This document shows, in pieces, positions 2,444-25,326 of a stretch of 64,000 nucleotides of DNA; the first letter of the stretch is position 1, and each line of letters starts with the position of its first letter. This DNA comes from Thermofilaceae archaeon (GTDB lineage Archaea; Thermoproteota; Thermoprotei; Thermofilales; Thermofilaceae). The DNA lies in NCBI GenBank assembly GCA_038861545.1, contig JAWCCZ010000001.1, forward strand, positions 491,926-555,925, read 5' to 3'. Both the position numbers and the translations under genes were made by a program. The notes under the pieces are model-generated. The model was not told where the DNA came from, searched no databases, and worked only from the letters and a program-made list of their open reading frames with translations.

Positions 2444-2461
2444 ACTCCTATAATGTAGTTG

Positions 2462-2567
2462 AGTTATATATTCTTCACGCTAAACTTCGCTTGAAAAGGT
2501 GATTCTGGCTATAAATCGGAGGCCGTATTGACATTGAGGCGCAGAGGACACGCTATAGTTATATATT
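2462..2567. promoter_or_regulatory. Divergent promoter region with two AGTTATATATT TATA-like boxes
   Basis: Identical 11-mer at 2462-2472 and 2557-2567, about 20-30 nt from the two divergent start codons. Confidence 0.5.
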
Positions 2568-2593
2568 ACCGACTTAACTTACATTGAGTTAGT

Positions 2594-4687
2594 GTGAGCG
2601 CCCAAGCTATTGAGAAAGAAGCTGGAGGGGGAAAAGCCAAAAAGGAGAAGGTTAAAAGTCAGAATAAAAAAGCCAAAAAGGAAAGATCTAAAAAGAAGGT
2701 TGAGGAAAAAACCGGAGAGGAGAAGGCTGGAGATGGTGTAAGTTTCCTACCGCTTAAAGAGCACTACAAAATCCTTGAAGAGTACTGGGTGGCTGAACCG
2801 TACGCTAAAGTCAAAATCGCTGAAATACCAGAGCTGGGAAATCAGCGGATGTACTTCGTCGAAGAAGTACAGCTAGCAAAGGGGGAGAAAAGCGTTCTAG
2901 GGAAGCTGATCGATATCCTGGCGGTCGAGCTTGAACCTCCAGCTTCGTTCGATGTGGATCTGAGGGAGCATATAGTCAAGGAAGCTAGGAGGCTTGCAGA
3001 GAAGTACCGGGCAGTCGCACGCGGCTTAAGCGAGGAAAGCTGGAATAGAGTGCTCTATTATGTTGAAAGAGACCTTGTCGGATATGGTCCGATAGAAGTT
3101 CTGATGCGTGACTACAAACTGGAGGATGTCTCCTGCGACGGTGTTGACAGGCCCATACACGTCTGGCACAGGGATTACGAGTCCATCCCTACGAACATCG
3201 TTTTCAGGGACAGGGACACGTTGAGAGAGTTCATTGTGAAGATCACTCACATGTCCGGGAAGCATATCTCAGCCGCTTTCCCTATTGTGGACGCTATGCT
3301 CCCTGGTAGGCACCGGCTTGCAGCAACCTACGGTGAAGAGGTATCCCCGAAGGGTAGCACGTTCACGATTAGGAAGTTCAGGGAAAGGCCTTTCTCAGTC
3401 GTCGAGCTAGTCGAAACGGGTAACATCGACTCGTGGACCGCTGCTTACCTATGGTTGATGATCGAAAATAAAATGACCGTCATGGTGATCGGAGCCACGG
3501 CCGCGGGTAAAACCACGTTCCTCAACGCAATCGCTAACTTCTTTAAGCCGGGCTTTAAGATTGTCACTATTGAGGAGACCCCTGAGCTGAACCTACCCCA
3601 CGAGAATTGGGTCCAGCTGGTTAGCAGGGAGAGTTACGGCCTCGGCGAATCAAAGGTCGGCGAGATCTCGCTTTACGACCTTGTAAGGCTCTCGCTTAGG
3701 TATAGGCCCGACTATATCATCGTCGGCGAAGTCAGGGGCTCCGAGGCTTTCGTCCTCTTCCAAGCGATGGCGACGGGGCATGGCGGTATGAGCACGATGC
3801 ATGCCGATTCACTTGAAGCCGCTGTTAGGAGGCTTACGAGCCCGCCGATGAACGTGGCACCTGCATACATTCCGGCGTTGAACGTAGCGTGCTACGTGGA
3901 GAGGACTATTCTCCCGGACGGGCGGGTCGGTAGGAGGATGAGGCACCTTTGGGAGGTAGAAGACTACCAGAAGTACAGGGAGATTGTCCGCTGGGACCCA
4001 GTTAGGGACACGCACGTGGTCGTTGGCGGCAGTACTCATGCGGGCTTTGTTGCCACGAGGTTGGGCAAAAGCGTAGACGAAGTATTCGAGGAGATCGAGC
4101 GGAGAAGACAAGTTCTCGAGTGGTTAAAGATGAAAGGCGTTAAAGATACAAAAGACGTATTCATCTGGATAAACCGCTACTACATGAACCCCAAGGAGGT
4201 GTACGAGCTAGCCCGCAGCGAGCTTGAGCAGCTCAAGGTGAAACCCGCGCCACCCATTGTAGCACCATCAGCGCCTTCAGCACACGTACCCGTAGTGGCT
4301 CCATCAGCCGCGGCGCAAGTCGCTCAACCGATCGCAAGGCCTGTTCTAGCTAAACAAACCTCAGAGGTAGATCCCCTTCAAGCGCTTCGATCTCTCCCAA
4401 GAGCAATACAGGTTAGAAGAGGGGCAGCAGCATCTGAGCCGATAATGATCAGCAAAGAGGCGCTTACAGTGCTTAAAGCTCTTGGAGGGCTGGGCGGGGT
4501 AGCGGATAGGGAAACTCTCCGCTCCTCGGCGGGGCTAGCCTACAACGTATATACTAAAGCTATCTCTGAGCTTGCGCAGAGAAGGCTTGTTGAAATTGCA
4601 GTAAGCTACTCGGGTGGATCCCCTAAAGTCAGCTACAGGTTAACGGAGCTTGGCGAAAGACAGCTTGAAGCGCTGCCACCCGAATAG
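2594..4687 (+). CDS. Type IV pilus assembly ATPase (FlaI/VirB11 family) with C-terminal Pro/Ala linker and wHTH-like domain
   Basis: Walker A GATAAGKTT, Asp box TIEETPEL, LRYRPDYIIVGEVRG, His box TGHGGMSTMH. Confidence 0.93.
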   Translation: MSAQAIEKEAGGGKAKKEKVKSQNKKAKKERSKKKVEEKTGEEKAGDGVSFLPLKEHYKILEEYWVAEPYAKVKIAEIPELGNQRMYFVEEVQLAKGEKSVLGKLIDILAVELEPPASFDVDLREHIVKEARRLAEKYRAVARGLSEESWNRVLYYVERDLVGYGPIEVLMRDYKLEDVSCDGVDRPIHVWHRDYESIPTNIVFRDRDTLREFIVKITHMSGKHISAAFPIVDAMLPGRHRLAATYGEEVSPKGSTFTIRKFRERPFSVVELVETGNIDSWTAAYLWLMIENKMTVMVIGATAAGKTTFLNAIANFFKPGFKIVTIEETPELNLPHENWVQLVSRESYGLGESKVGEISLYDLVRLSLRYRPDYIIVGEVRGSEAFVLFQAMATGHGGMSTMHADSLEAAVRRLTSPPMNVAPAYIPALNVACYVERTILPDGRVGRRMRHLWEVEDYQKYREIVRWDPVRDTHVVVGGSTHAGFVATRLGKSVDEVFEEIERRRQVLEWLKMKGVKDTKDVFIWINRYYMNPKEVYELARSELEQLKVKPAPPIVAPSAPSAHVPVVAPSAAAQVAQPIARPVLAKQTSEVDPLQALRSLPRAIQVRRGAAASEPIMISKEALTVLKALGGLGGVADRETLRSSAGLAYNVYTKAISELAQRRLVEIAVSYSGGSPKVSYRLTELGERQLEALPPE

Positions 4688-4783
4688 TACTGGTAACCGA
4701 TTACAATCATAAAAAATGTTGGTTTCCCGCTATTACATGCGAAAAATATAAATTACAGTGTTCTTCTGATATTATGAGAAGAC

Positions 4784-5239
4784 ATGATTAGGAGGAAGGC
4801 TATAAGCCCGGTTATCGCCACCGTGATTATCGTTGCAGTCACAATCGCTGTAGCGATAGCCGTAGCCTTCTGGATGACCGGCATAGTCGGATTATTCACG
4901 GCAACTGAGAGATTAGAAATCACATCCGCTTTCGTTCAGTCTACTCAAAGTGGATGGACGATTACCATGACTGTCAAAAACACAGGTACGACGCCAACAA
5001 GCATCGACTATATAGTAGTTAACGGGGTAAATCTTGAGGATCCCGCCTGTGGCGGTGTGACTCTAAGTGCAGGAACATTACCGCTGGCGATAAACCCCGG
5101 AACCGATGCGAACCTAGCCATAGATATTACTAGTGGGGGAACGTGTGGAGCTACCACGTTCTCCGCTGGAGTAAGTATTGAGTTAAAGCTTCACAGCACT
5201 GGAGGTAAAGAATACCCGAAGCTACTGGTGTTACCGTAA
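4784..5239 (+). CDS. Archaeal type IV pilin
   Basis: Class III signal peptide RRKA/ISPVIATVIIVAVTIAVAIAVAFW; VKNTG motif; downstream of the assembly ATPase. Confidence 0.9.
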   Translation: MIRRKAISPVIATVIIVAVTIAVAIAVAFWMTGIVGLFTATERLEITSAFVQSTQSGWTITMTVKNTGTTPTSIDYIVVNGVNLEDPACGGVTLSAGTLPLAINPGTDANLAIDITSGGTCGATTFSAGVSIELKLHSTGGKEYPKLLVLP

Positions 5240-12481: not shown

Positions 12482-14071
12482 ATGGCGAAGGTTATGAAAT
12501 CGCCGAAATATGTGATGGCGGTAGATCAAGGCACAACTGGGACCAGAGTGATGCTTTTCACGAGGGATGGTTTACCAGTTCAAGGTGGATGGGCTTACCG
12601 CGAACATAGACAAATCTACCCCCGCCCCGGCTGGGTTGAACATGATCCAATGGAAATATGGGAGAACACGAAGCTCTGCATGAAAGAGGCTTTAGAGAAG
12701 GCTCGAGTAGACCCAAGGAACCTAGCAGCTATAGGTGTTACGAACCAGAGGGAGACGATAGTGGTATGGGATCAGCGCACAGGTAAACCTGTTTACAACG
12801 CTATCGTGTGGCAAGATAGGCGGACAGCCCCCTATGTGGATTACTTAAAAGGATACTATGCTGAAGTAGTAAAGTCGAAGACTGGATTAGTTCCCGACCC
12901 TTACTTCTCCGCAACTAAGGTTTGGTGGCTCTTGGATAATGTGCCGAACCTGAGGGAAAAAGCCTCTAAAGATGACGTGCTAATCGGTACTATTGACACG
13001 TGGCTTGTATGGAACCTAACGCGTGGAGCTAGGGATGTACAGACACCAGAGAAAGGAGGAGCACACGTCACTGACTACTCAAACGCGTCTAGAACTATGT
13101 TGTTCAACATATGGTACCTTGAGTGGGATGATGAGTTGTTAGAAATTAACGGTAAAATCCCGAAGGAACCCCTTCCAGCTCCGAGACCTTCAAGCGATAA
13201 GGCAGTTTACGGTTACACGGGACCTGAAGTTGCAGGCTTGCTTAGTGGAGCAAGTGTGCCAGTCACTGGTGATGCCGGTGATCAGCAGGCAGCGCTATTC
13301 GGTCAAGCCGGTTTCTCAGAGGGGGATATGAAGTGCACGTACGGGACTGGTAATTTCCTACTGATGAATACGGGCAGCAGGATCGTGGAATCGAGGCATG
13401 GTTTACTCACCACGGTATTCTATAGCCTTGAGCCTGGGAAGGCCACGTACGCTTTAGAGGGTAGTATCTTTGTCACAGGTGCTGCTATACAATGGTTGAG
13501 GGATGGTTTAAAGATCATCGAAGTCTCTGCTGAGGTGAACCCGCTAGCTGAAAGCGTATCGGACACAGGCGGAGTTTACTTTGTCCCGGCGTTCGTGGGT
13601 TTAGGGGCGCCATACTGGGATCATTACGCTAGAGGGGTAATAGTGGGGATAACTAGGGGAACAGAGCGCAAGCACTTAGCGCGAGCAGCACTGGAGTCTA
13701 TAGCTTACATGACTCGAGACGTTGTGGAAGCAATGACTGCAGACACAGGCTTAAAACTCGATGTCTTAAAGGCGGATGGAGGCGCAGCGAAAAGCGATTT
13801 CCTGCTTCAGTTCCAGGCGGATATCCTAGGTGTTAGGGTCGTAAGGCCGGTGGTTTGGGAGACAACGTCCTTGGGTGCCGCTTACTTAGCGGGGTTAGCG
13901 GTTGATATGTGGGACGGTATAAGCGAATTACGGGGTAACTGGAAGGCGGAGAGAGAGTTCAACCCATGGATGGACGCAGCTACGAGGGATAGGCTTTATG
14001 AGGGGTGGAAGGCCGCGGTGAAGAGGGCTCTCGGCTGGGCGAAAGAGGTACCTTGGGCATATGGGTACTGA
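12482..14071 (+). CDS. glpK: Glycerol kinase
   Basis: [56 protein letters not shown]. Confidence 0.97.
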
Positions 14072-15572
14072 GGCTGGTGACGTGAAGCTGAAAGTAGCTA
14101 TTATTGGAGCTGGTGTAGTGGGGGCTTCGATAGCCAGAGTACTCAGCATGTACGAAAATTTCGATGTAATCCTACTGGAGCGAGAACCGGATGTGGGCTG
14201 GGGTGCGAGCAAGGCTAACACGTCTGTTATTCACCCGGGTCATGAGGAGGATCCAAGAAAGCACCCGATTAGAGCGAAGCTCTGCGTGGAGGGTAACCAA
14301 TTATGGAGGAAGTGGACTGAGGAGCTCGATATCCCGGCTAGATGGCCAGGGGAGCTGATGCTTTTCTACAGTAATGAGGAAGTTAAACGAGCTGCAGAGT
14401 ACGTGGAGTTTGCCAGGCTTAACGGTGTACCCGGCGTTAAAATAGTGTGGGAGGAGGTTAAGCAGATTGAGCCGTGGGTTAACCCGAGCACAACTGGAGC
14501 GATTTACGCGCCAACCGCTGGCTTGGTATCTCCCTTCGAAGCTGTCGCTGCTATAGTGGAGAACGCTGTAGGAAATGGAGTCAGGCTTCTAGCGGATACT
14601 GAGGTAAACGGAATCAAGGTTTCCGGCGGGGAAATAAATGGCGTGGAAACTGGTAGGGGGTTCGTGGAAGCTGATTTAGTAATTAACGCTGCGGGTTTAT
14701 GCGCGGATCGTGTTTCACACATGGCTGGTGTAGAGCTGGGGTTCAGGATAAAACCTAGAAGGGGGGAGTACCTTCTTTTTGATGAGAATGTGCATGTTAA
14801 ACCGCGCATGATCCTGCATCCAGTCCCTACACCTATTACTAAAGGCGTCTACGCCATAACCACGGTTCATGGTAACCTAATGCTCGGCCCTACAGCTGAT
14901 GATCTACCCGAGGAAGAGAAAAATAATCTTTCGACTACAGGGGAGGGCCTTTCTCGCGTGATAGAGGAGGCTTCAAAGTTGTTAAAAGAGATTCCACCCC
15001 ATGATAAGGTGATCAGGTTCTTTACAGGTTTAAGGCCGGAGCCTCCCCATGGCGAATGGTTGATTAAAGCCTACAACGACCCTTGGGGTTTCGTCAACGT
15101 AGCCGGTATTCGATCTCCCGGTTTAACAGCTGCACCGGCTATTGCCAACTATGTTTTAGAGCTCATAGTCAGGGAATATGATGTAAAGCTAAATCGTAAA
15201 CTTTTGTGGAACCCTTACAGGGTGAACGTAACCAGTGTTAGGGGAAAAAACATAGAAGAAATGGATCAGCTAGTGAAAGTAAACCCGGACTATGGAGAAA
15301 TCGTTTGTCGTTGCAGGTTAGTGTCCAAAGCTGAAATTATTGAAGCCATTGAAAGGATGAGGAAGATAGGGCTTGAGCGGATAACTGTTGATGGAGTTAA
15401 ATTTAGGACTACGGCTGGAATGGGCTGGTGTCAAGGGCAGTTCTGCAGGTGGAGGATATCGCTTATTATCTCACAGGCCACCGGCATTCCGCTTTACGAG
15501 GTAGCTGTTAAGCGAGCAAGCTACGGTATAGGGGATGTAAAGGTTCTGCTTAAAGGTGGAAACATTTGCTAG
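14061..15572 (+). CDS. glpA: FAD-dependent glycerol-3-phosphate dehydrogenase subunit with C-terminal BFD-like [2Fe-2S] domain
   Basis: [28 protein letters not shown]-terminal CRC...GWCQGQFC; overlaps glpK. Confidence 0.85.
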
Positions 15573-16816
15573 AGCTAAAGTTCGACTTGGTTGTGGTTGG
15601 AGGCGGTCCAGCCGGAATCGCTGCAGCCTCGAAAGCCTGTGAGCTGGGCATGAAAGTAGGGTTAATTGAGAACAGGGAAGTCCTCGGAGGAATCCCATTA
15701 CAGTGTGTTCATTCAGGTTTTGGTGTGCATATTTTTAGGGAGGATTTAACAGGGCCAGAGTTCATCTATAGGCTCATTGATCGGCTTCAACGCACAGATG
15801 TTAAACTTCTCCTGAGATCTTATGTGCATTCGATTGAGTTGAAGGCTTTCGACGAGAAGATTGTCACGGTATTTTCGCCGAATGGGGTTCAAAGGCTATA
15901 CGCTAAGGCGATTGTGCATTCAACAGGTGCGCGGGAGAGGACGATATTCGAAATAGGCGTAACTGGCGAAAGGCCAGATGGAGTGTACACCGCTGGGGAG
16001 GCTCAGACGATGATGGATTTGTACGGCTTGATGCCGGGTCGAAAGGTAGTTATCATTGGATCCGGTGATGTGGGCTTAATTATGGCTAGAAGGTTCGCGC
16101 TTGAAGGTGCCGAAGTGAGAGCTGTAATCGAGGTGCTTCCCTACCCGGGTGGATCTATGCGGAATGTAGTCAGCTGCCTCCAGGATTTCGGGATACCGCT
16201 TTACCTAAACCATGCTGTGGTCTCCCTCTATGGTAGAAAGAGAGTTGAGAAGGTAGTTGTAGCGAAAGTTGACAGCGAAATGAAGCCTATACCGGGTACG
16301 GAGTTCGAAGTAGAGTGTGATGTAGTCGTAGTGGCCGCCGGCTTAAGACCTAACATGGAGCTGTTGGAGAGGATGGGTGCAGTTCTCGATCCAGCTACAG
16401 GGGGGCCAGTCGTTAATGAAATGCTCGAAACAACGGTTCCTGGAGTCTTCGCGGCCGGCAATGCGTTAGTTGTAAACGACTTAGTAGATTATGCTGTTGA
16501 GCAGGGTGAAAGGGCTGCTGAAGGCGTTTACGAGTTCATCAGCAACTGTTCTAAAAGCGCTGCGTGGAAGAAGGTAATAAAAGGTAGAAATGTGAGGTTG
16601 ATTATACCTCACTACGTCAGCGGTGAACGAGACGTTATATTTTACGCGAGGGTTAAGAACCCTGAAAGAAAGGTTTTCTTTGAGCTACTCGGATCTGATT
16701 TGAAGTTGTACCAGCAGGGCGTCAGACCTTCAGAGATGGTTAGGTTTAAAGTTTCTTCATCAATTATATCCAGCTTAGGTGATAAACTACTCTTCCAGGT
16801 GAGGCCGCTTGAGTGA
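15566..16816 (+). CDS. FAD/NAD(P)-dependent oxidoreductase, partner subunit of G3P dehydrogenase
   Basis: GGGPAG, LQCVHSGFG, TGARER, GSGDVGLIMARR; operon context. Confidence 0.87.
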   Translation: MLELKFDLVVVGGGPAGIAAASKACELGMKVGLIENREVLGGIPLQCVHSGFGVHIFREDLTGPEFIYRLIDRLQRTDVKLLLRSYVHSIELKAFDEKIVTVFSPNGVQRLYAKAIVHSTGARERTIFEIGVTGERPDGVYTAGEAQTMMDLYGLMPGRKVVIIGSGDVGLIMARRFALEGAEVRAVIEVLPYPGGSMRNVVSCLQDFGIPLYLNHAVVSLYGRKRVEKVVVAKVDSEMKPIPGTEFEVECDVVVVAAGLRPNMELLERMGAVLDPATGGPVVNEMLETTVPGVFAAGNALVVNDLVDYAVEQGERAAEGVYEFISNCSKSAAWKKVIKGRNVRLIIPHYVSGERDVIFYARVKNPERKVFFELLGSDLKLYQQGVRPSEMVRFKVSSSIISSLGDKLLFQVRPLE

Positions 16817-17210
16817 GGTAACGCTTATATGTATAATCTGCCCAGCTGCCTGCGAGCTTAAGGCTGTTTTGCTACCGAATGATGAAACGCGGGTAGAGGG
16901 TGCAGGGTGCGCTAGAGGAGTAGAGTACGCCAAGCAAGAAGTGCTTAACCCGAGGCGGATGATAGTAACGGTAGTTAAGGTTAAAGGGGGCGATCTCCCA
17001 GTGGTTTCAGTTAAAACGAGTCAACACGTACCGAAGAGTCGCATCGCAGAGATCATGAGAACTACAGCGGAAGTCGTAGTCGACGCGCCAGTTGAGATTG
17101 GGCAAGTTGTAGCAATGTGCCCGGGGGGTGTAGAGCTTATAGCTACGAGGCGAGTAAAAGCCTTAGCCGATCAAAGGGCCTTGGGAAAGCTGTACGAGAA
17201 CACAAGTTAA
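16809..17210 (+). CDS. DUF1667 family Cys-rich subunit of the glycerol oxidation operon
   Basis: CIICPAAC...GCARG..YA..E..NPRR, VSVKT. Confidence 0.87.
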   Translation: MSEVTLICIICPAACELKAVLLPNDETRVEGAGCARGVEYAKQEVLNPRRMIVTVVKVKGGDLPVVSVKTSQHVPKSRIAEIMRTTAEVVVDAPVEIGQVVAMCPGGVELIATRRVKALADQRALGKLYENTS

Positions 17211-17223
17211 TATATTCCTAAAG

Positions 17224-17589
17224 TTAACTGGCACTTTTCACTGAATCCTCAATCTGCTTAGTGTATTTGTCGAGTAAGTAGTATATTAGACCTAGATTCG
17301 GGTTACTCTTAGATACGAGGCATATTACGCCGTTTTTCAGTTCTCTCAGCATAACGATTCTGCCATCTTCTAACTCAACAACCACGTCCCTAACACCAGT
17401 GCTGAAATACTGTCTAAAAGCCTCTCCCACGCCTGCTACTACAGCTGCTCCAAGCGCTGCTACTATGTCATCGATATCTGACGGATTTGAAGCAGCTATG
17501 GTAACCCCATCAAGAGTTGCTAGCACCGCGCGCTCCAGCTCACCCATACTTCTTTTTACCAGTTCCCCGAGAACTGTTTCAACACTCAT
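17224..17589 (-). CDS. Roadblock/LC7 (MglB-like) protein
   Basis: AVLATLDGVTIAAS...VAALGAA...PNLGLI pattern; 121 aa. Confidence 0.85.
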   Translation of the reverse strand: MSVETVLGELVKRSMGELERAVLATLDGVTIAASNPSDIDDIVAALGAAVVAGVGEAFRQYFSTGVRDVVVELEDGRIVMLRELKNGVICLVSKSNPNLGLIYYLLDKYTKQIEDSVKSAS

Positions 17590-17912
17590 CTGAGCACCAC
17601 CCTGTACACCCCGTCTTCCTGAGGCGTTACTTGTAACTCGTTTTCCCCTATACGTACTCTAAGCTCGCTAAGTCCTCCAGCTTCCTCGAAAACCTTTACT
17701 GCTTGAACAGCGTACACGGCTAACATTTTATCCACTTGCCCCTGCGCTTCCACCACTAGCCCCCTCTTATCGACCAGTGCCGCCCACTTATACCGCCCTT
17801 TATCCTTTTTCTTCCGCGACTTTAAGATAACTATAGCCAGCACCACTGCTACAACCACGATAGCGGCTGCAGTAGCTGTAAGCATGAGCATGGAGCCTGT
17901 TAACGGCATCAT
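17586..17912 (-). CDS. Single-TM protein with roadblock-like cytoplasmic domain
   Basis: N-terminal hydrophobic helix, basic KSRKKKDK, then AALVDKRGLVV (roadblock-like strand-turn); overlaps the roadblock gene. Confidence 0.6.
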   Translation of the reverse strand: MMPLTGSMLMLTATAAAIVVVAVVLAIVILKSRKKKDKGRYKWAALVDKRGLVVEAQGQVDKMLAVYAVQAVKVFEEAGGLSELRVRIGENELQVTPQEDGVYRVVLR

Positions 17913-18029
17913 CGAAAATGATTACAAACTCAGTAATTTAAAGATGTTCCTTAAAGTATTACCCCAGTGTTACGAACCAGTGCATTAAATATAAAACCCA
18001 CCAGTAAAGAGATTATCGCGGGGAAAAGG

Positions 18030-18563
18030 TTGCAGGACACGGAGACCGTGCTCATCGCCGGCCCTTTTGGAGCTGGGAAGACTACATTCATACGCACTGT
18101 CAGCGGTAAGTCGATTACTACGGACAGGGAGCTAAGTGGCATAGGCGTTAGCGCTGGAGAAGTCAAGCTAAAGGGCTCTACAACCGTTTTCGCTGACATG
18201 GGTGTCGCTGAGCTGGATGGGAGGAAGCTCCTCCTCTACGGGGCTCCCGGTCAAGTTCGTTTTAGCTTCACGGTTAAAGGGCTGGCGTCACGCTGTAAGT
18301 ATCTAGTTTTCCTCGTGGACACAACAGATGAAGCAGCTGTTATGAGGAGTAGGCTGTATTATGAGCGACTCATAAAACCCTATTTTGATCGTTTTACAAG
18401 TAAGGTCTTCGCACTAAATAAGAGAGATACATCGAAGCTTCCAATCATGAGGGTGTTGGAGTTATTCGGATCCATGAATTGCCCTTTTGTCGAGCTTGTT
18501 GCGCTGGATAAGGGCTCTTGTCTTACTGCGTTAAGGATTCTTCTAGGAGGTGAAGGGGTATAA
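18030..18563 (+). CDS. MglA/CvnD-like small GTPase (likely TTG start at 18030; the ORF track starts at 17967)
   Basis: G1 GPFGAGKTT, TTVFADMG, G3 LYGAPGQVRF, G4 NKRD. Confidence 0.85.
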   Translation: MQDTETVLIAGPFGAGKTTFIRTVSGKSITTDRELSGIGVSAGEVKLKGSTTVFADMGVAELDGRKLLLYGAPGQVRFSFTVKGLASRCKYLVFLVDTTDEAAVMRSRLYYERLIKPYFDRFTSKVFALNKRDTSKLPIMRVLELFGSMNCPFVELVALDKGSCLTALRILLGGEGV

Positions 18564-18571
18564 TAGAGAGG

Positions 18572-18907
18572 TTGAAGAATATTTTCAGAGAGAGACGGGG
18601 AAAGCGGTATTCTTTTCCCACCACTGTGGTGGCAGGAGATTATGAAGTTATGGGTTCCGCTTTAACTATTGAGGAGGTAAGCGAGGACATGGAGCTGGCA
18701 GATGCATTAAAGCCCTTTGCAGCGATGAGTTCAGATTCGCCTGTACTGGTGATAGCGATAGGCAAGGGTTGGAAGGTTAAGCTAGCGGTGAATAAAGGTC
18801 TAGTGGAGATCGTGGAAGTAGAGGGAATAAACGCTGATAAGGCGATTTTCATGCGGGGGCCAGCTATTGTTCTTCCGTTCCCGGCTAAGGCTTTACGGCG
18901 GAAATAA
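18572..18907 (+). CDS. Hypothetical protein, possibly PATAN/DUF4388/DUF2226-like
   Basis: LADAL...VLVIAIG..WKVKLAVNKGLVEIVEV pattern; 8 nt after the MglA-like gene. Confidence 0.45.
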   Translation: MKNIFRERRGKRYSFPTTVVAGDYEVMGSALTIEEVSEDMELADALKPFAAMSSDSPVLVIAIGKGWKVKLAVNKGLVEIVEVEGINADKAIFMRGPAIVLPFPAKALRRK

Positions 18908-19661
18908 GCGTAAGGAGGGGTCCTCTTCTGAACCTAACGGATCCAAACCTCTCCCCTTCAATATAACTTCTTACTAACTCAGCCGACCAGGTGCCGGCCG
19001 TGCTCCCTAAAGCCACAAGAAACGGGGTTATCGGGTTAGCCCCTTCCCACTCGAGCGGTGCTATCATTATAAACTGGCCTCCCGGTGAAAGTGCAGCGGA
19101 AGCCCTGGAGATCAACGGCATCGGCTCATACAGCCAGTTTGAGGGTGAGGCGATGATGATGGAACCTATTGGCTCGCTCAAATGCCTTAGGAAGCTTGCA
19201 TAATCCCCTTTAACTAAGAGGTAGTTAGAATTCCCTATACCCCTTAACCTTTCCTCTGCTATTGCGAGGTTGATGTCTGAGGGGTCTACCGCTATAAGCC
19301 TGCTCCACAGCTTGGCTGCATACTCCAAGCTCACAGCCGGTCCGCAGTGCATGTCTACTAAAGCCCCCTCCCTCCTCCTCGAGGCTGATAACCCGCCCCA
19401 CAAAAGGTCGGTGAACTCCTTGGATTGCATCAAGGCTTCCGAGAACAATGCAAAGTCCGGCGTATCCCAGGGTTTCTCACCCCGTATTAGAGGAACTCTT
19501 TCAGCGAGGAATTTGAAAACTTTAAGTAGGTAAGGATCTGGGAGCCCCTCCCCCGCTTTAACTGAAGCCGTAATCTGTCGGACACTCTCAGATTCGCGGA
19601 TCCCAGCTGTTGATTTAACAAGATCCCTTAATGCCTCGTAAACGGATCTCCAAGCGCTCAT
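18885..19661 (-). CDS. Class I SAM-methyltransferase-like protein with degenerate motif I
   Basis: LVDMHCGPA, LIAVDPS, LSPGGQF. Confidence 0.7.
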   Translation of the reverse strand: MSAWRSVYEALRDLVKSTAGIRESESVRQITASVKAGEGLPDPYLLKVFKFLAERVPLIRGEKPWDTPDFALFSEALMQSKEFTDLLWGGLSASRRREGALVDMHCGPAVSLEYAAKLWSRLIAVDPSDINLAIAEERLRGIGNSNYLLVKGDYASFLRHLSEPIGSIIIASPSNWLYEPMPLISRASAALSPGGQFIMIAPLEWEGANPITPFLVALGSTAGTWSAELVRSYIEGERFGSVRFRRGPLLTLISAVKP

Positions 19662-20443
19662 CCAGCCACCTCTTCGAACCTTATAATCCCTCTTCTCTCT
19701 AAAGCTAAGATTCCGCTAAACCTTTCTCGCATAGTAACTGGGTCTTGCGCCAGAACCGCGTCAACAAGCCTCCAACCGTCTAAGCCAGCGGCCCAATCTA
19801 TGATCCTGGGCGATATCCAGGGTAAACGGTTTACATACTCCTTGAAAAGTGCTACGGCACCAGTGTCGACTTTCACTACAAGTTTCCTTGATTTGAATGC
19901 TAACTCGAAAAGTCTTACCATAAAGGGGGAAGGTTGAGTGCTGATGCTAGCGTCGAGGAGCAGCGTGGAAAGCAGTATCGTGCCAAGGTCTGCTGTAGGC
20001 ACTTTAGCCAAGCCTTTAAGGTACCCTCTAGCCCACTCAACGGCTGTTTTCGCCAAATCGAGATTCGAAAGCTCAAGCTCAAGCTCCGAATTTTCCTCGG
20101 AAATCTTAAGCGCGGTACCCATACTCCTCCTGTAGCACTCAATCATACCTCCACCGGTTGAGAGCCTGAAACCGTTGATGTGACTCATATAATTCAAGTA
20201 AGCCGGATTAACCCTAAGTGTCTCGCCTTTCTGTAGAGTTCTGAAAACTCTAATCCCTCTATCATGTCCCTCAGCGTCAACATATACGACAAAGACATGG
20301 TCACCATGATAGTCTGCAACACCTACTAAGCCGGTAGGGCTAGATAGAGCTGCCGTCAACGTAGTTGCGTCTAGTACGAACTCTACACCCTTCCCGCAAT
20401 CTGGACACGTGAGCTTTAAGACACGGACAGCTCTTGTGGCCAA
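19658..20443 (-). CDS. Zn-ribbon (CxxC...HxxH) hypothetical protein
   Basis: CPDC...HGDHVFVVYVD..G.DRG; overlaps both neighbours. Confidence 0.65.
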   Translation of the reverse strand: MATRAVRVLKLTCPDCGKGVEFVLDATTLTAALSSPTGLVGVADYHGDHVFVVYVDAEGHDRGIRVFRTLQKGETLRVNPAYLNYMSHINGFRLSTGGGMIECYRRSMGTALKISEENSELELELSNLDLAKTAVEWARGYLKGLAKVPTADLGTILLSTLLLDASISTQPSPFMVRLFELAFKSRKLVVKVDTGAVALFKEYVNRLPWISPRIIDWAAGLDGWRLVDAVLAQDPVTMRERFSGILALERRGIIRFEEVAG

Positions 20444-20949
20444 TTTCCCACCCCCGATAGAAACTCAGCTAGGGCAAGGAAGGGGACATCCGTATTAGCT
20501 CCATCTTTAGCTGAAGTTTCAAAATAAGCTAGAAAACCTCTTCGCGTTGCATAATCTTCTGCCCGCTCGCGTGGAATAACCCTATAAGTTGTCATATCCA
20601 CCTTGTTTCCAACAAGGACGCGCGGTAAATCACCTACCACGTCAAGAACCACAGTAAGCCAGTCCTCTAAGTGCTCGAAAGTTTCCTCCCTCGTTACATC
20701 AAATACAAAAACAGCTCCTCTAGCGCCTTTCAGGAACACTGGGGCGAGAAAGCGGAAACGCTCTTCTCCCCCTAAATCCCATACTATAAGTTTAATCGGC
20801 CCGTCGTTAGTTGGCAACTCTCTCACGTGGTGGGAAACCCCAACTGTAAGTTTTTGCATTGGGTTGAAAGGGGAACCAATGAACCTGCTGACTAAGCTCG
20901 TTTTTCCCACCCCGCCGTCCCCACACATAACAATTTTAAATGCCTTCAT
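20416..20949 (-). CDS. Rab-like small GTPase (Ras superfamily)
   Basis: G1 GDGGVGKTS, G2 TVGV, G3 WDLGGEERF, GARGAVFVFDVT, G4 GNKVD, G5 ETSAK. Confidence 0.93.
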   Translation of the reverse strand: MKAFKIVMCGDGGVGKTSLVSRFIGSPFNPMQKLTVGVSHHVRELPTNDGPIKLIVWDLGGEERFRFLAPVFLKGARGAVFVFDVTREETFEHLEDWLTVVLDVVGDLPRVLVGNKVDMTTYRVIPRERAEDYATRRGFLAYFETSAKDGANTDVPFLALAEFLSGVGNWPQELSVS

Positions 20950-20954
20950 AGACC

Positions 20955-21326
20955 CTAGGGTGAAAGCACCTTACTTAAACGTTCTCCGGCGGACTCCGCC
21001 TGCCAAAGTGCATATCCGAGCTTGGATTCAGCACCGATCAGCATTACGAGCACGAAATCCCTACTCAGGCTCTTAATTAACAATATCCCCTTATCGCTTT
21101 TAACCGCGAGGTATGCCATGCTACCCCCCCTGAGCTCCTTAATTACTTGCTCAGCCACGCCTTGGAGGGTTGCTGCCATCGCGGAGACTTTCAGTTCATC
21201 GGCTTCTTTCATAAGGGAAACCACCGGCATGCCGTCACTGGTGACAACCGCAACAGCATCTAGCCCTGGATTATCTTTCCGCATACCCTCCAGAATATCG
21301 TTTAGGGCCTCGTATCTACCCTTCAA
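20955..21326 (-). CDS. Roadblock/LC7 (MglB-like) protein
   Basis: PGLDAVAVVTSDGMPVVS...VSAMAATL...KLGYAL. Confidence 0.9.
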   Translation of the reverse strand: MKGRYEALNDILEGMRKDNPGLDAVAVVTSDGMPVVSLMKEADELKVSAMAATLQGVAEQVIKELRGGSMAYLAVKSDKGILLIKSLSRDFVLVMLIGAESKLGYALWQAESAGERLSKVLSP

Positions 21327-21439
21327 ACGGACCCCTAGATAAGGGTTAAATTACGGATTAAATATGTTTCGGTTGATTAACCCATGTTAAATCAGCAACT
21401 GTCGATGTAATCAAGCGGGATTTACTTAAGGCCTGTTTT

Positions 21440-22414
21440 CTATGCTTTCAAGATAAAGGCGGGCGCCGGATGCCTCATTCGCTTTTCAATGCGCCATCCA
21501 GCGGTTTTAATCCAATCGTTTAACTGCTCCATCGTCGGCAGTATACTGGATCCCAGAAGGTAAGTTAAAGGAGCAAGCACCAGGCTAAGCTTCGTATCTA
21601 AGACTCCCTGAGTTAGCAAAGCGTTAGGTGTGACTTCTCTAACAGAGTTCAGAATTGTAAGTGGGTCGCTGCACCAGTGTAGAATGTTAATCATGACCGC
21701 GAAGTCAGCACTCTTAACAACCCTATGAATTTCCTCCCCCCTTCCCACTCTAACTTCTAACCTATCGCTTAGACCGAGAACCTCGGCGTAGCTCTTCGCA
21801 ACTTCTAGGTTCGGCTGATAGGGGTCCACAGCGATTACGCGGCTACCCGGGACAAGCCTGAGAATCGTTATAGATGAAAGCCCGATCCCTGCACCTACGT
21901 CCACGACCAACGAACCTGGCGGAATGTTCGCCCATTTTACTACTAGTTCCCTTAACCGATCGTAACCCAGGTTATCTAAGAAACGCCCGAACACGGCTCT
22001 GCTTTCCGCTCCGGCTGAGCTGCGGGCCATAAACCTTTCTCCGCTCATCAGCGAGTCCGGGAGGGTAGCGTAAACCCTGTCGATAACCGGCTTAAATGAC
22101 ACGAGATACCTGTTAGTTACTGGGGGAGGGTTACCAGATGTGCTTAGCCACTTCAACCTATCTGCCTCCCACCGGGCTAAGCCCTCGGCCTCCATTATGT
22201 CTCCGATAAGTTTAGCAAAACTCGGATCGGGGAACTCATGGAAAGGTTTTCTCTCCATCTCTTTATCGACCCCGGATTCTTCCAGCACTTGACGCGCTTT
22301 CCAAACAGCGTACCGCTCAGTCTCTCTTACAGCTTGCAGCATCTCACGCCCCTCTTTGCTGCCGATCATCTTTAGCGTGAACGAGATAAAAGATAACTCC
22401 GGCATCCTAACCAC
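21440..22414 (-). CDS. Class I SAM-dependent methyltransferase
   Basis: Motif I VVDVGAGIG, VIAVDP, ADFAVMINILHW. Confidence 0.85.
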   Translation of the reverse strand: MVRMPELSFISFTLKMIGSKEGREMLQAVRETERYAVWKARQVLEESGVDKEMERKPFHEFPDPSFAKLIGDIMEAEGLARWEADRLKWLSTSGNPPPVTNRYLVSFKPVIDRVYATLPDSLMSGERFMARSSAGAESRAVFGRFLDNLGYDRLRELVVKWANIPPGSLVVDVGAGIGLSSITILRLVPGSRVIAVDPYQPNLEVAKSYAEVLGLSDRLEVRVGRGEEIHRVVKSADFAVMINILHWCSDPLTILNSVREVTPNALLTQGVLDTKLSLVLAPLTYLLGSSILPTMEQLNDWIKTAGWRIEKRMRHPAPAFILKA

Positions 22415-22778
22415 CCTCAGGTTCTAGAACACCAAGCTTAAGCAGGGCTTCCACGGCTTTTCTCACCTCCGGCGTTAGTTCGCCTTCACCTCTTAACGCC
22501 GCGATAACCTGTTCTCTCATACGCTCTAGCATGGAAGGCCAGAGCTCCGGTCTCGCTAACCTAAGCCTTCCAGGTTTGTTCAAAGGTTCAGTAACCTCGA
22601 TTGGCCGAATATCTCGTATATCTGCATTCATATCCGCGAGAATCAAAGTGTAGCCTCCGCATCCAGTGCACCGTACAACTGTAGTTCCCTGCTTAACCTC
22701 AACCACGAGCGAGTTGTCACAGTGCGAGCACGGGATCTTAGCTATCCTGCCTTTTCCTCCAACTTCAACCACTTCCAT
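22407..22778 (-). CDS. Small Zn-ribbon protein (CxxC-CxxC)
   Basis: CSHC...CTGC; overlaps both neighbours. Confidence 0.7.
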   Translation of the reverse strand: MEVVEVGGKGRIAKIPCSHCDNSLVVEVKQGTTVVRCTGCGGYTLILADMNADIRDIRPIEVTEPLNKPGRLRLARPELWPSMLERMREQVIAALRGEGELTPEVRKAVEALLKLGVLEPEGG

Positions 22779-23103
22779 TATTCTCCCCCTCTTTTTTGAA
22801 AATTATTTTTAATTCCTCAAGCCAAAAATTAATGAAATTTTTATCATCGCGCTCAAAAGCGTTTAACAGCTCATCCGGCGGAACCCTGAACCCTCTCTCA
22901 GTCAGGATGCAAGCAACAAGTATGATAAACAACCTAGCATAGTCAAGGTCATTATCATATAAGCCAGCTAGCCGTTCCATAAACCTCCTAGGCGACTCTA
23001 CAACCAGTGTATCAGGGTCACCCCACCCCTCTCTCTCAAACCCTCTTCTTACAAGCATTCCAGCCGGGTAAGCCAGGAAATCGAGAAGCTCAGTCAACCT
23101 CAT
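22765..23103 (-). CDS. Small helical protein, possibly DUF3227/NitrOD5-like
   Basis: LVVESPRRFMERLAGLY resembles the P..F...L..hF core of that family; SD-like GAGGTGA upstream. Confidence 0.5.
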   Translation of the reverse strand: MRLTELLDFLAYPAGMLVRRGFEREGWGDPDTLVVESPRRFMERLAGLYDNDLDYARLFIILVACILTERGFRVPPDELLNAFERDDKNFINFWLEELKIIFKKEGENNGSG

Positions 23104-23104
23104 A

Positions 23105-24118
23105 TCACTTCACCTCTACCTCTTTCTGAAGTTTAACTACTTCACGTAGCAGGTACAGAAGCGGAGTAACTTTCACGATGCCCGGTATCATTGTGAACTC
23201 TATCGCATCAATGTCCAGGTCACCTAGCGCTCTATACAATTCGGGCATTGCCGCACATGGTGGTTGGCCAGATACCAAAGCCTTACTTAGGTCAATGTAA
23301 GCTGTGTGGAACCAAGGTAACTGAACCAATGTATTTGCAACAGCGTAAGCGTCTCTTCCTTCAACGTAAATCACCTTATACGGTGTGGAATCCAGCTTAT
23401 CGTATACGCGTACCCTATTTCCCTCCCATAAATTAAGCAAATGATCTTTGAAATGTTTGCTAAGTACCCGGCGTGGAACTTTTTTCTCAAAGTATTTTTC
23501 GCTTTCTCTTTCAGCTTCTCTCATGGAAGAGAAAGGCCATTTAAACTTCATTGATAGAATTAAAAGGTCAACGTCATCGAGTAGTATATTTTTCTCGGAT
23601 AGGGAAAGCTGCGGCCCTCTCTCTTTTTCACCCTTTTGTAGATATATTTCAGGGATTTTCCCATACAGTTTTCCATTCGTGTACATTGTTAGCTTAGATT
23701 TTGGACTCCACCATGCTCTTTTTACGGCTCTAACTACTAAGGCGTTATCCTCAAAGTTTGATAGCCAGTTTTCAATAACTTCGTTTGCTACTGGCAATAG
23801 TCCAACGTAAAGGTAGTAACGACCTCCCATGATGCGCAGTTCCCTTGTAGACTCATAGTAAGGTAATTTTTCTATATACTTTTTACTGATAACTGCTATG
23901 TTTAAAAGTCCAGCTTTCTCCAGTTTTATTTCAAATCTTAAAGAAACATTTTTGGAAACATTAAATTGGGAGAGTAAACGGGAAACCGTGTATGGTGGTA
24001 AGCCGGATTTTTTCACCACTTCGGATATCGTAAGCGAATCTTCCACTGCTTGTATAACTTTCCATTCATCTTCTCTTATGTTAAGAAATGGGAAAAATTT
24101 TTCTGATATAGTCCTCAC
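23105..24118 (-). CDS. Putative transcriptional regulator with two Lrp/AsnC-like HTH modules
   Basis: N-terminal TISEVVKKSGLPPYTVSRLL HTH; second module LDDVDLLIL...PFSSMREA...LSKHF. Confidence 0.7.
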   Translation of the reverse strand: MRTISEKFFPFLNIREDEWKVIQAVEDSLTISEVVKKSGLPPYTVSRLLSQFNVSKNVSLRFEIKLEKAGLLNIAVISKKYIEKLPYYESTRELRIMGGRYYLYVGLLPVANEVIENWLSNFEDNALVVRAVKRAWWSPKSKLTMYTNGKLYGKIPEIYLQKGEKERGPQLSLSEKNILLDDVDLLILSMKFKWPFSSMREAERESEKYFEKKVPRRVLSKHFKDHLLNLWEGNRVRVYDKLDSTPYKVIYVEGRDAYAVANTLVQLPWFHTAYIDLSKALVSGQPPCAAMPELYRALGDLDIDAIEFTMIPGIVKVTPLLYLLREVVKLQKEVEVK

Positions 24119-24152
24119 CTGAATTTCTTTGTTTTGACCACTTATTTTTATC

Positions 24153-24308
24153 TTAAAGTGGGTCTATGTCAGGCGCAGGCACTCCTCCTGGCGGGGGTGG
24201 AGGCTCGGGAGCAACAATGCTCTTAGAAATTACGAACGCAGCTAGCGCAAGCACTAGCGCAAGCAGCTTCCACTTGTAAATTTTCAGTACGTATTTTATG
24301 GTTCTCAT
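24153..24308 (-). CDS. Unannotated 51-aa signal-peptide-like microprotein MRTIKYVLKIYKWKLLALVLALAAFVISKSIVAPEPPPPPGGVPAPDIDPL
   Basis: Translated by hand, ATG 24308 to TAA 24153; basic n-region, hydrophobic h-region, Pro-rich acidic tail; TATA-like TTTAAGTA about 25 nt upstream. Confidence 0.72.
   Translation of the reverse strand: MRTIKYVLKIYKWKLLALVLALAAFVISKSIVAPEPPPPPGGVPAPDIDPL
24242..24265. repeat. Perfect 12-bp tandem repeat (CTAGCGCAAGCA x2) inside the microprotein h-region
   Basis: Read directly from the sequence. Confidence 0.8.
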
Positions 24309-24339
24309 CAATAATTAGGTGAAAACTGTGATACTTAAA

Positions 24340-24393
24340 CTTTACGCCATTTTTGCAGTCACACATTGATATAGTTGCAAAAATGGCGTAAAG
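24340..24393. promoter_or_regulatory. Perfect 18-bp inverted repeat with 18-nt spacer abutting the microprotein TATA box (operator candidate)
   Basis: CTTTACGCCATTTTTGCA (24340-24357) / TGCAAAAATGGCGTAAAG (24376-24393). Confidence 0.75.
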
Positions 24394-24582
24394 AACTTGC
24401 AGGCAGCAGCGGACTCGTACATTTGCCTCAACTGTATGTTTACTATTTAAACTAAATAGTTGAAATTTTCAAATGAAAACTTGGGATTTATATTTCAGTT
24501 TCTAAGTGTTACATAGGCACTCTTCGAAGATATTCGATGATTGTAAAGTTGGACTTTTAAGGTAATTGGTAGCTAGTATCGA

Positions 24583-25326
24583 GTGCGTAATTTTACCTTA
24601 TCGGATTTCAGGGAGAGGGAGATTTTAAGAAAACTGGCCCACATTATCTTATCGCTCCTAATGATTATACCTCTCTCTCCGAAGTATAGTTTACCAATTA
24701 CCGGCTTTGGGACCTTTGACAATGCTTTAACGACTTACACAGCAGCATTAGTTACAGTACTATTTGTTACGAGCTTACAGGTTAAAAAGCCAGAGCTGCG
24801 CGAGGCTATGCTTAGATTGTCAAGAGAAGCCAGAAAGTCGGTTTTACAACATCTCCGCGAGGTTATCCCGAATCAGGAACTAGTTGAAGGCGTGGAGCAG
24901 GCTTTAGATAGAGCTGAATCCGGTTTTCTCTCTATTATTGAATCTATTGAACGAGATTATGAGCGCAGGTACGGGTATATAGCGGCTGTTTGTGGTCTCA
25001 CAGGTGTGACAGCGAGCTACATTTTTTTCGGTAGAGAAGCAACACTTCGGGGAATTCTCGCACTAGCGGTAGTGGACCCGGTTGCATCAATAACTACGCT
25101 TTACTCTCCAGTTCAAGGTAGAATTTTAAAACATAATGTATTTTCGCCCTTCGCCTCTTTTCTAGTTTACTTCCTAATTTTGATAATTATGGGAGAGAGT
25201 ATAATAACTGCCTTAATACTGGGGTTAGCTTCTTCAACTGTAGAGCTCCTATCTCTTGAGGATAACCTTACGTTACCATTAGGTGCGGCATCACTATATA
25301 TTCTCTGCGTGAAAATAGGGTTATAG
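24583..25326 (+). CDS. Dolichol/phytol kinase-like membrane protein
   Basis: REILRKLAH, LAVVDPVAS, VELLSLEDNLTLP. Confidence 0.7.
   Translation: MRNFTLSDFREREILRKLAHIILSLLMIIPLSPKYSLPITGFGTFDNALTTYTAALVTVLFVTSLQVKKPELREAMLRLSREARKSVLQHLREVIPNQELVEGVEQALDRAESGFLSIIESIERDYERRYGYIAAVCGLTGVTASYIFFGREATLRGILALAVVDPVASITTLYSPVQGRILKHNVFSPFASFLVYFLILIIMGESIITALILGLASSTVELLSLEDNLTLPLGAASLYILCVKIGL

Follow-up and report, generated by a model that had tools for sequence, protein, structure and literature searches.

Do thirteen tightly packed archaeal genes for two small GTPases, roadblock proteins, two zinc/methyltransferase pairs, a peptide and a regulator form one signalling system, or are they neighbours by location? 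The question is raised by positions 17,224 to 24,393 of a 64,000-nucleotide stretch (the window) from a Thermofilaceae archaeon of hot springs (assembly GCA_038861545.1, contig JAWCCZ010000001.1, positions 491,926 to 555,925). An earlier note on this DNA had read the genes as a single circuit in which the peptide and the regulator head both GTPase switches. Our analysis makes it very likely that the locus is a composite of three modules rather than one circuit. Module 1 is a block with the order RB1 < TM-roadblock <> MglA >< MT2 < Zn2 < Rab-like < RB3, in which RB1, the TM-roadblock and RB3 are roadblock proteins, Zn2 is a zinc protein and MT2 has a methyltransferase fold. Module 2 is a mobile Zn1 > MT1 pair, and module 3 consists of peptide > regulator > helical gene, with an operator-like repeat of its own. 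Taken as a whole, we favour on balance, and with moderate confidence, a GTPase switch with Zn2 as its adaptor and a partner of the S-adenosylmethionine (SAM) fold, acting on type IV pili.

Conservation, pilus linkage and expression

The genes that stay together across genomes are those of the trio Rab > Zn2 > MT2. The trio is syntenic in 19 of the 22 evaluable genomes, which come from Thermofilales and one neighbouring family; every complete genome examined from genus g9 has it. MT2 lies directly 3' of Zn2 in 24 of 24 genomes examined. Full-length Zn2 was found in 12/12 sampled members of the family, in two further Thermofilales and in one other family, in a survey of 401 genomes of the phylum. 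The wider seven-gene block (MglA, the three roadblocks and the Rab trio) is confined to two genera, g1, to which the window belongs, and g8; it is identical in the window genome (G000), in G002 and in G011-G014, and in G010 as far as assembled. The full 13-gene order occurs only in genus g1, namely in G000 and, to its contig limit, in G002. In the sister genus (G010, G011, G013), peptide > regulator > helical gene is directly followed, in convergent orientation, by the last gene of a glycerol operon, while in G001 the same module is followed by another gene. Since module 3 directly abuts the glycerol gene in the sister genus, modules 1 and 2 fill that gap only in g1. The 13-gene layout is a local juxtaposition and should therefore not be called one system, and the single-system proposal was rejected.

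The co-conservation envisaged in the earlier note holds in part. Module 1 is kept, and GTPases, roadblocks and zinc/methyltransferase pairs occur together again in an independent family (G418), but the peptide/regulator unit is separable. In G418, MglA > roadblock > unknown gene > Zn1 > MT1 > small GTPase converge on pilin-like genes, with TadC nearby; the two-GTPase/roadblock/zinc-methyltransferase mix therefore exists in a second arrangement, for which both inheritance and transfer are possible.

Pilus genes recur beside these modules. In the window, genes for TadC, a pilus ATPase and a pilin lie at 635-5239, 12 kb from the locus, as had been pointed out before. The end of an orthologous TadC gene (70-76% identical, same strand) lies 170 nt upstream of RB3 in G011 and 416 nt upstream in G012; in G013 the gene is 6.5 kb away. 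The order in G393 is pilin-like genes <> MglA >< MT2 < Zn2 < pilus ATPase, and G430 has the same order to its contig limit. Moreover, Zn1 > MT1 pairs are embedded in the pilin clusters of G014 and G011, and an MT > short Zn pair was found near pilin-like genes in G283. The pilus link is recurrent, not universal; with pilus genes repeatedly adjoining GTPase/zinc/methyltransferase sets, the suggestion that they are a possible target has gained ground.

Environmental RNA agrees with separate transcription. Hot-spring metatranscriptome run X4 contained 88 reads from the locus, 81 of them at ≥99%, all with the first mate on the plus strand, which in most stranded libraries denotes minus-strand RNA. 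The mean depth was ~4.1 over 18808-21215 (Rab operon), 0 over 21216-21516 and ~1.1 over 21517-24526 (peptide operon). MglA, the roadblock pair and the glycerol genes had a depth of 0. In run X1, contigs cover essentially the Rab operon alone, and runs X2 and X3 gave no locus reads. These depths fit two separately transcribed minus-strand units, and their difference (~4.1 versus ~1.1) does not bear out the co-regulation proposed earlier.

All 13 open reading frames (ORFs), with their orientations and overlaps, were verified in the sequence (Table 1), and all 13 genes have conserved orthologues in other genomes. The ORFs overlap by 4, 28, 4, 8 and 14 nt, the gaps within units are 1 to 34 nt, and 113 nt separate the two minus-strand units. 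The glycerol operon ends 13 nt before the locus. Within the assembly of the window genome (1.63 Mb, 92% complete), the Pfam roadblock matches are those of the locus, with none elsewhere. The nearest locus, with a GTPase 91% identical, comes from an uncultured Thermofilaceae genome.

Table 1. Features of the locus and the adjoining operon (positions in the window; aa, amino acids; HTH, helix-turn-helix; E, expect value)
Feature	Position	Strand	Remarks
Glycerol kinase/dehydrogenase operon	12482-17210		Last gene adjoins the GTPase block in genus g1
RB1, roadblock, 121 aa	17224..17589	-	MglB-like; Pfam Robl_LC7 E 1e-7
TM-roadblock, 108 aa	17586..17912	-	N-terminal hydrophobic helix; weak Robl_LC7 match, E 0.03
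MglA-type GTPase	17967..18563	+	Pfam ATP_bind_1 E 4e-7
Genus-specific protein, 111 aa	18572..18907	+	3 homologues only, 81-95% identical
MT2, class I methyltransferase fold	18885..19661	-	Pfam E 9e-5; module 1 core
Zn2	19658..20443	-	CpXC zinc, longin-like (88-172) and winged helix (180-260); module 1 core
Rab-like GTPase	20416..20949	-	Pfam Ras E 6e-41; all G boxes
RB3, roadblock, 123 aa	20955..21326	-	Pfam E 1e-12; first gene of Rab operon in g1, g2, g8
MT1, class I SAM methyltransferase	21440..22414	-	Pfam E 7e-9, over cut-off; intact motif I DVGAGIG
Zn1	22407..22778	-	Short Zn2 paralogue without longin part: four-Cys zinc domain, helical tail
Small helical protein, 112 aa	22765..23103	-	Weakly NitrOD5-like
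HTH regulator, 337 aa	23105..24118	-	Family with 1-6 matches per Thermofilaceae genome
Peptide, 51-52 aa	24153..24311	-	Basic start, hydrophobic core, Pro-rich tail ending IDPL; probable ATG 24308
TATA-like box TTTAAGTA	24332..24339	-	~24 nt before peptide ATG; aligned across 6 genomes
Perfect 18-bp inverted repeat, 18-nt spacer	24340..24393	.	Abuts TATA box on its upstream side

The GTPases, the candidate adaptor Zn2 and MT2

The two GTPases belong to different families, as had been recognized before. In the Rab-like protein the catalytic Gln of switch II is replaced by Glu: the motif reads DLGGE here, and DxGGE is invariant across 17 aligned sequences. No C-terminal prenylation cysteine motif was found in the window protein or in most orthologues. 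Classification as a true Rab was rejected because both the DxxGQ glutamine and the prenylated C-terminal cysteines are missing, despite the Ras fold and boxes G1-G5. Thermofilum Rab-like GTPases have been reported to cluster with two Lokiarchaeal sequences (Surkont and Pereira-Leal 2016, PMC4915359), and the window protein very probably belongs to that same single-copy Thermofilaceae family. That work makes no mention of an operon, neighbour or roadblock; the gene partners are described here. As a separate observation, genomes of family f4 (L220, L221, L224; G354, G417) carry three Rab-like paralogues each, one of them N-terminally extended, and two of those in G417 lie in tandem.

MglA probably starts at TTG 18030, not at GTG 17967, and its G boxes read GPFGAGKT (G1), GAPGQ (G3) and NKRD (G4). 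When compared with the definition of MglA Groups 2-5 (Wuichet and Sogaard-Andersen 2015, PMC4316618), it has both G1 GxxxxGKT and G4 NKxD, its G2 reads TTV as expected (Thr, no Group 1 arginine), and an MglB-type roadblock lies within four genes, the TM-roadblock and RB1 being adjacent. Box G3 is GAPGQ in the window clade and GTPGQ in relatives. Phylogenetically, two MglA types stand apart: the window MglA forms a clade with that of G418 (support 96/97), and g9, g7 and others have a different MglA, encoded in a roadblock > MglA operon elsewhere in the genome. Three roadblocks had been named in the locus; two are over the Pfam cut-off, and the third, the TM-roadblock, is a weak match. RB1 is in the same place in two g1 and five g8 genomes. 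The TM-roadblock is kept in g1 and g8, and its hydrophobic helix makes it a candidate membrane anchor. The 111-aa protein had been labelled PATAN-like, a label we reject: it has no DUF4388 match at E 10, no Pfam or NCBIfam match and only its three close homologues, and it is missing from its place in g8.

The 261 aa of Zn2 are taken up by its three domains, and AlphaFold2 models of Zn2 reached pLDDT scores of 87 and 91. Invariant in the zinc domain are C13, C16, H46, H49 and a DxxGxxRG hairpin. In a fold search of 48,161 chains, each of the 26 best matches to residues 88-172 is a longin domain (Z 4.5-6.2, root-mean-square deviation (rmsd) 3.0-4.1, 76-91 residues aligned), including those of SRalpha, synbindin, VAMP7, adaptins, Lst4, TRAPP and GATOR1. 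Residues 183-258 best match a recognition element of ribosomally synthesized and post-translationally modified peptides (RiPPs; 8t19, Z 6.8, rmsd 2.6, 68 aligned), and lower-ranked matches are other winged helices and GATOR1/SEA chains (Z 5.9). Both of these parts of Zn2 find a counterpart in a single GATOR1 chain, 8fw5_C (longin part Z 4.9, winged helix Z 5.9). An invariant GP or Arg, as in the GTPase-activating (GAP) longins of NPRL2, FLCN and SMCR8, was not found within residues 88-172; the conserved Arg62 and Arg65 sit in the zinc domain. DENN gave no Pfam match in Zn2, and DENN proteins were matched via their longin part only. Trm112 (PF03966) matched neither Zn1 nor Zn2, and Trm112 structures were missing from wide fold lists for Zn2, in which the zinc domain was barely probed and had no search of its own. 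Foldseek against the PDB gave nothing at E 0.001 for either model, and the ESM Atlas gave weak leads only (<0.9, TM ~0.3), to Promethearchaeota CpXC clusters.

Methylation had been proposed as the output of the locus. This is doubtful for the GTPase-linked MT2, in which the SAM-binding motif I is eroded: one Gly is left here (DMHCGPA), none in g7 and g9, including complete g9 genomes, and two in several other lineages. On the basis of this motif, MT2 is probably a pseudo-enzyme or a sensor of SAM or S-adenosylhomocysteine (SAH).

The Zn1 > MT1 pair and the peptide cassette

Zn1 and Zn2 are true paralogues (HHalign 95.9%, E 5.5e-9), in agreement with the earlier description of paired zinc/methyltransferase modules. 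A search found no longer Zn1 fusions, which is weak evidence. Zn1 is partnered with MT1 homologues in g8 and G418, and one to three Zn1 > MT1 copies per g8 genome lie away from the GTPase block. Among Thermoproteales-type families, GTPase > short Zn > MT occurs in G250 and Zn > MT in G295. In G342 a GTPase gene is followed by a zinc domain fused, by eye, to a roadblock-like region. Within genus g1, Zn1 > MT1 overlaps the helical gene by 14 nt, in G002 as well, and is read there as the tail of the peptide operon.

Several arrangements of these proteins were noted. At L232:2114-3064, in a Thermoproteales-type genome, the gene directly 3' of a small GTPase encodes a CpXC zinc domain joined to a roadblock-like region. 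The window genome has two MT1 paralogues without an adjacent zinc partner (C1:443844-444803 and C2:225670-226617; 37% and 41% identical). V4R/Bet3-like proteins, recognized by eye and without a Pfam match, adjoin short zinc proteins at L226:5619-6263, L220:14461-14937, L228:4100-4633 and L153:6414-7106, and in three of these four cases the gene lies between the short zinc gene and a small GTPase or roadblock gene.

In module 3, peptide homologues precede the regulator in five other genomes (G001, G010, G011, G013, G014), and judged by these homologues the predicted peptide gene is real; minus-strand RNA reads cover it. The helical gene is next after the regulator in G000, G001, G010, G011 and G013. 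Its relation to NitrOD5 (PF11537) rests on E 0.0013 for one of six aligned members, which is not the window protein. The regulator had been described as a tandem-Lrp protein; an N-terminal HTH is present, but the label is unconfirmed, as the half-versus-half repeat is weak (17.9% over 35 columns), and so is the match to the Lrp protein PH1519 (E 0.65).

The arms of the inverted repeat (GCCATTTTTG) are kept in six genomes, with a variable spacer. According to a weight-matrix scan, the full site occurs once in the genome, at the peptide promoter, and not at the GTPase promoters of the window or of g8 loci. The repeat is a candidate operator of the regulator. A sigma-70 promoter scan stayed at chance level, the sigma-70 model being unsuited to archaea. 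In RRNPP-type cassettes, a small exported-type peptide gene lies beside the gene of a DNA-binding regulator, with the operator at the peptide promoter. Module 3 appears similar in having a peptide beside a DNA-binding-type regulator and a candidate operator, but its regulator has an HTH and no TPR match. A lone perfect half-site of the operator, without a partner arm, is found at C5:107351 of the window genome. Short Asp/Pro-rich ORFs also stand 5' of distant regulator paralogues (L057:2479-2562, L058:1406-1573, L073:2478-2564), and one of them has a hydrophobic core and ends in PGPL; the peptide pairing may be wider in the regulator family.

Mechanism, rival readings and known systems

In the GTPase switch that we favour, the Rab-like GTPase would dock on the longin-like domain of Zn2, by analogy with SRalpha/SRbeta, TRAPP and Mon1-Ccz1. 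Because of the change from Gln to Glu, its hydrolysis would probably be slow or partner-dependent. The zinc domain and helical tail would hold the methyltransferase-fold partner, as suggested by short homologues that lack the longin part and stay paired with methyltransferases without a nearby GTPase. MT2 could then be a scaffold or SAM/SAH sensor, not an enzyme, while RB1 and the TM-roadblock may serve MglA as GAP and membrane anchor. The most probable output would be to control the assembly or position of type IV pili. Module 3 would be an autoregulated peptide/regulator cassette without direct control over the GTPase operons. A bolder version, which we put forward only tentatively and hold to be unlikely, is an ancient non-Asgard machine of Thermoproteia with two GTPases: the Rab-like protein on an NPRL2/3-like zinc/longin/winged-helix adaptor, anchored roadblocks positioning MglA, and the methyltransferase fold coupling SAM state to pili. 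If this were true, and the trio also occurred in Asgard, longin-based control of Rab-like GTPases would predate the Asgard/Thermoproteota split.

Several observations weigh against the switch model. The longin Z-scores of Zn2 are middling, and its model has four strands and lacks the longin helix after strand 2; middling scores and one missing helix are why residues 88-172 are called longin-like here, in character a reduced longin. Zn2 > MT2 occurs without an upstream Rab gene in G393, G354 and G348. Within ~10 kb of the Rab trio, the examined g9 genomes carry no roadblock, MglA or pilus gene; their roadblock > MglA operons are located elsewhere. Most of the compared genomes are related, so that the counts are not independent, and the RNA signal of X4 amounts to ~44 fragments from one sample.

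The g9 arrangement would also suit a cytoplasmic role independent of pili, for instance as a metabolic or SAM-state switch or through Trm112-like activation of a methyltransferase for protein or RNA, with pilus proximity reflecting a shared variable region. The Zn > MT pairing is the tightest link of all, and several Zn1 > MT1 pairs are not near pili (L112, L116, L119), which points in the same direction. We nevertheless regard this role as rather unlikely: at least three separate families have pilus genes on the flanks of the module, in varied arrangements, and a true Trm112 gene (the genome's one PF03966 match) stands elsewhere, at C3:108887. That the peptide and the regulator govern both GTPase switches, with methylation as output, appears improbable. 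Module 3 lacks GTPase, zinc and methyltransferase genes in G001, G010, G011 and G013 (in the last three it sits GTPase-free beside the glycerol operon), the operator is confined to the peptide promoter, and X4 shows a roughly fourfold depth difference between the minus-strand units and no reads on MglA or RB1. These points outweigh the translational coupling of Zn1 > MT1 to the helical gene and a metagenome contig (L166:3758-6875) on which a distant regulator-family gene (24% identical) lies ~4 nt upstream of Zn2 > MT2 > roadblock; this is the sole second case that joins the regulator family with the zinc/methyltransferase module.

The winged helix might instead be the business end of Zn2, either with a DNA-binding output (compare the proposal for Group 3 MglA) or by RiPP-like presentation of the peptide to MT1. 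This seems very improbable. The top fold match to a RiPP recognition element fits it, as does the presence of peptide, Zn1 and MT1 in one operon in genus g1; winged helices are common, though, and the best-ranked matches lie within 1 Z of each other. Moreover, four other genomes have the peptide but no Zn1 > MT1, and at least six loci have Zn1 > MT1 but no peptide. A RiPP cluster was rejected.

Compared with MglA-MglB(-MglC), the window has MglA G boxes without the Group 1 arginine and a roadblock within four genes, and by analogy with Myxococcus it likely shares a type IV pilus link. It differs in the GAPGQ of G3, in the membrane helix on one roadblock and in having a further GTPase operon attached, which encodes a candidate zinc/longin-like adaptor and a methyltransferase-fold protein. 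No conserved neighbours had been found for the Group 2 Rup GTPases of crenarchaea (PMC4316618). Asgard archaea have a roadblock > Rab-like GTPase > DENN operon as well as NPRL2-like proteins (Liu et al., bioRxiv 10.1101/2020.10.19.343400). The window likewise has a roadblock, a Rab-like GTPase and a longin-like protein in a single operon, but its host is non-Asgard, the third gene encodes a CpXC zinc protein with no DENN match in Pfam, and a methyltransferase fold comes next. The longin-like part and small C-terminal winged helix of Zn2 recall NPRL2/NPRL3, but the longin-like part has no conserved GP motif or arginine. Operons shared between GTPase genes and roadblock or longin genes are rare in MK-D1 (Tran et al. 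2024, PMC10933270). Archaeal pilus loci often contain roadblocks (arCOG02603), and arCOG05058, a SAM methyltransferase that carries an N-terminal domain, has been linked to regulators of the archaellum (Makarova et al. 2016, PMC4858521); the Thermoproteales pilus loci in that study are given without mention of Ras-like GTPases or of this zinc protein.

A literature search, outside of which subscription papers fell, found no paper on the GTPase/zinc-longin/methyltransferase set. The individual parts are known; what is new is a longin-like fold in a non-Asgard host, the linkage to pilus genes and the modular dissection. Little is known of the partners of archaeal small GTPases, and the block names candidate partners outside Asgard, as a defined set of small thermostable proteins; the family has members in culture. 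Finding a candidate longin-like adaptor together with a Rab-like GTPase in a non-Asgard host is relevant to dating the origin of longin control over these switches.

The Asgard Rab-like loci examined had no zinc/methyltransferase neighbours. On two contigs a Ras-type gene lies beside a CpXC protein gene, and four other CpXC homologues had no identified GTPase neighbour. A 2.1-kb contig of a genome labelled Jordarchaeia (Asgard; L002:1-2130, JAHAWR010000194.1) has Rab > Zn2 > MT2 together with a portion of the 111-aa gene and is 88-89% identical to the window; it is probably mis-binned Thermofilaceae, a caution for counts of eukaryotic-signature proteins. Beside the pilin/MglA/Zn2 locus of G393 lies a roadblock gene cluster with a ParB-like gene and two HTH-like genes (L150:3929-7331). 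Divergent from the peptide gene of the window, 24583-25326 encodes a 247-aa membrane protein without a Pfam match, of dolichol/phytol kinase type by eye only, whose place is taken by other genes in g8.

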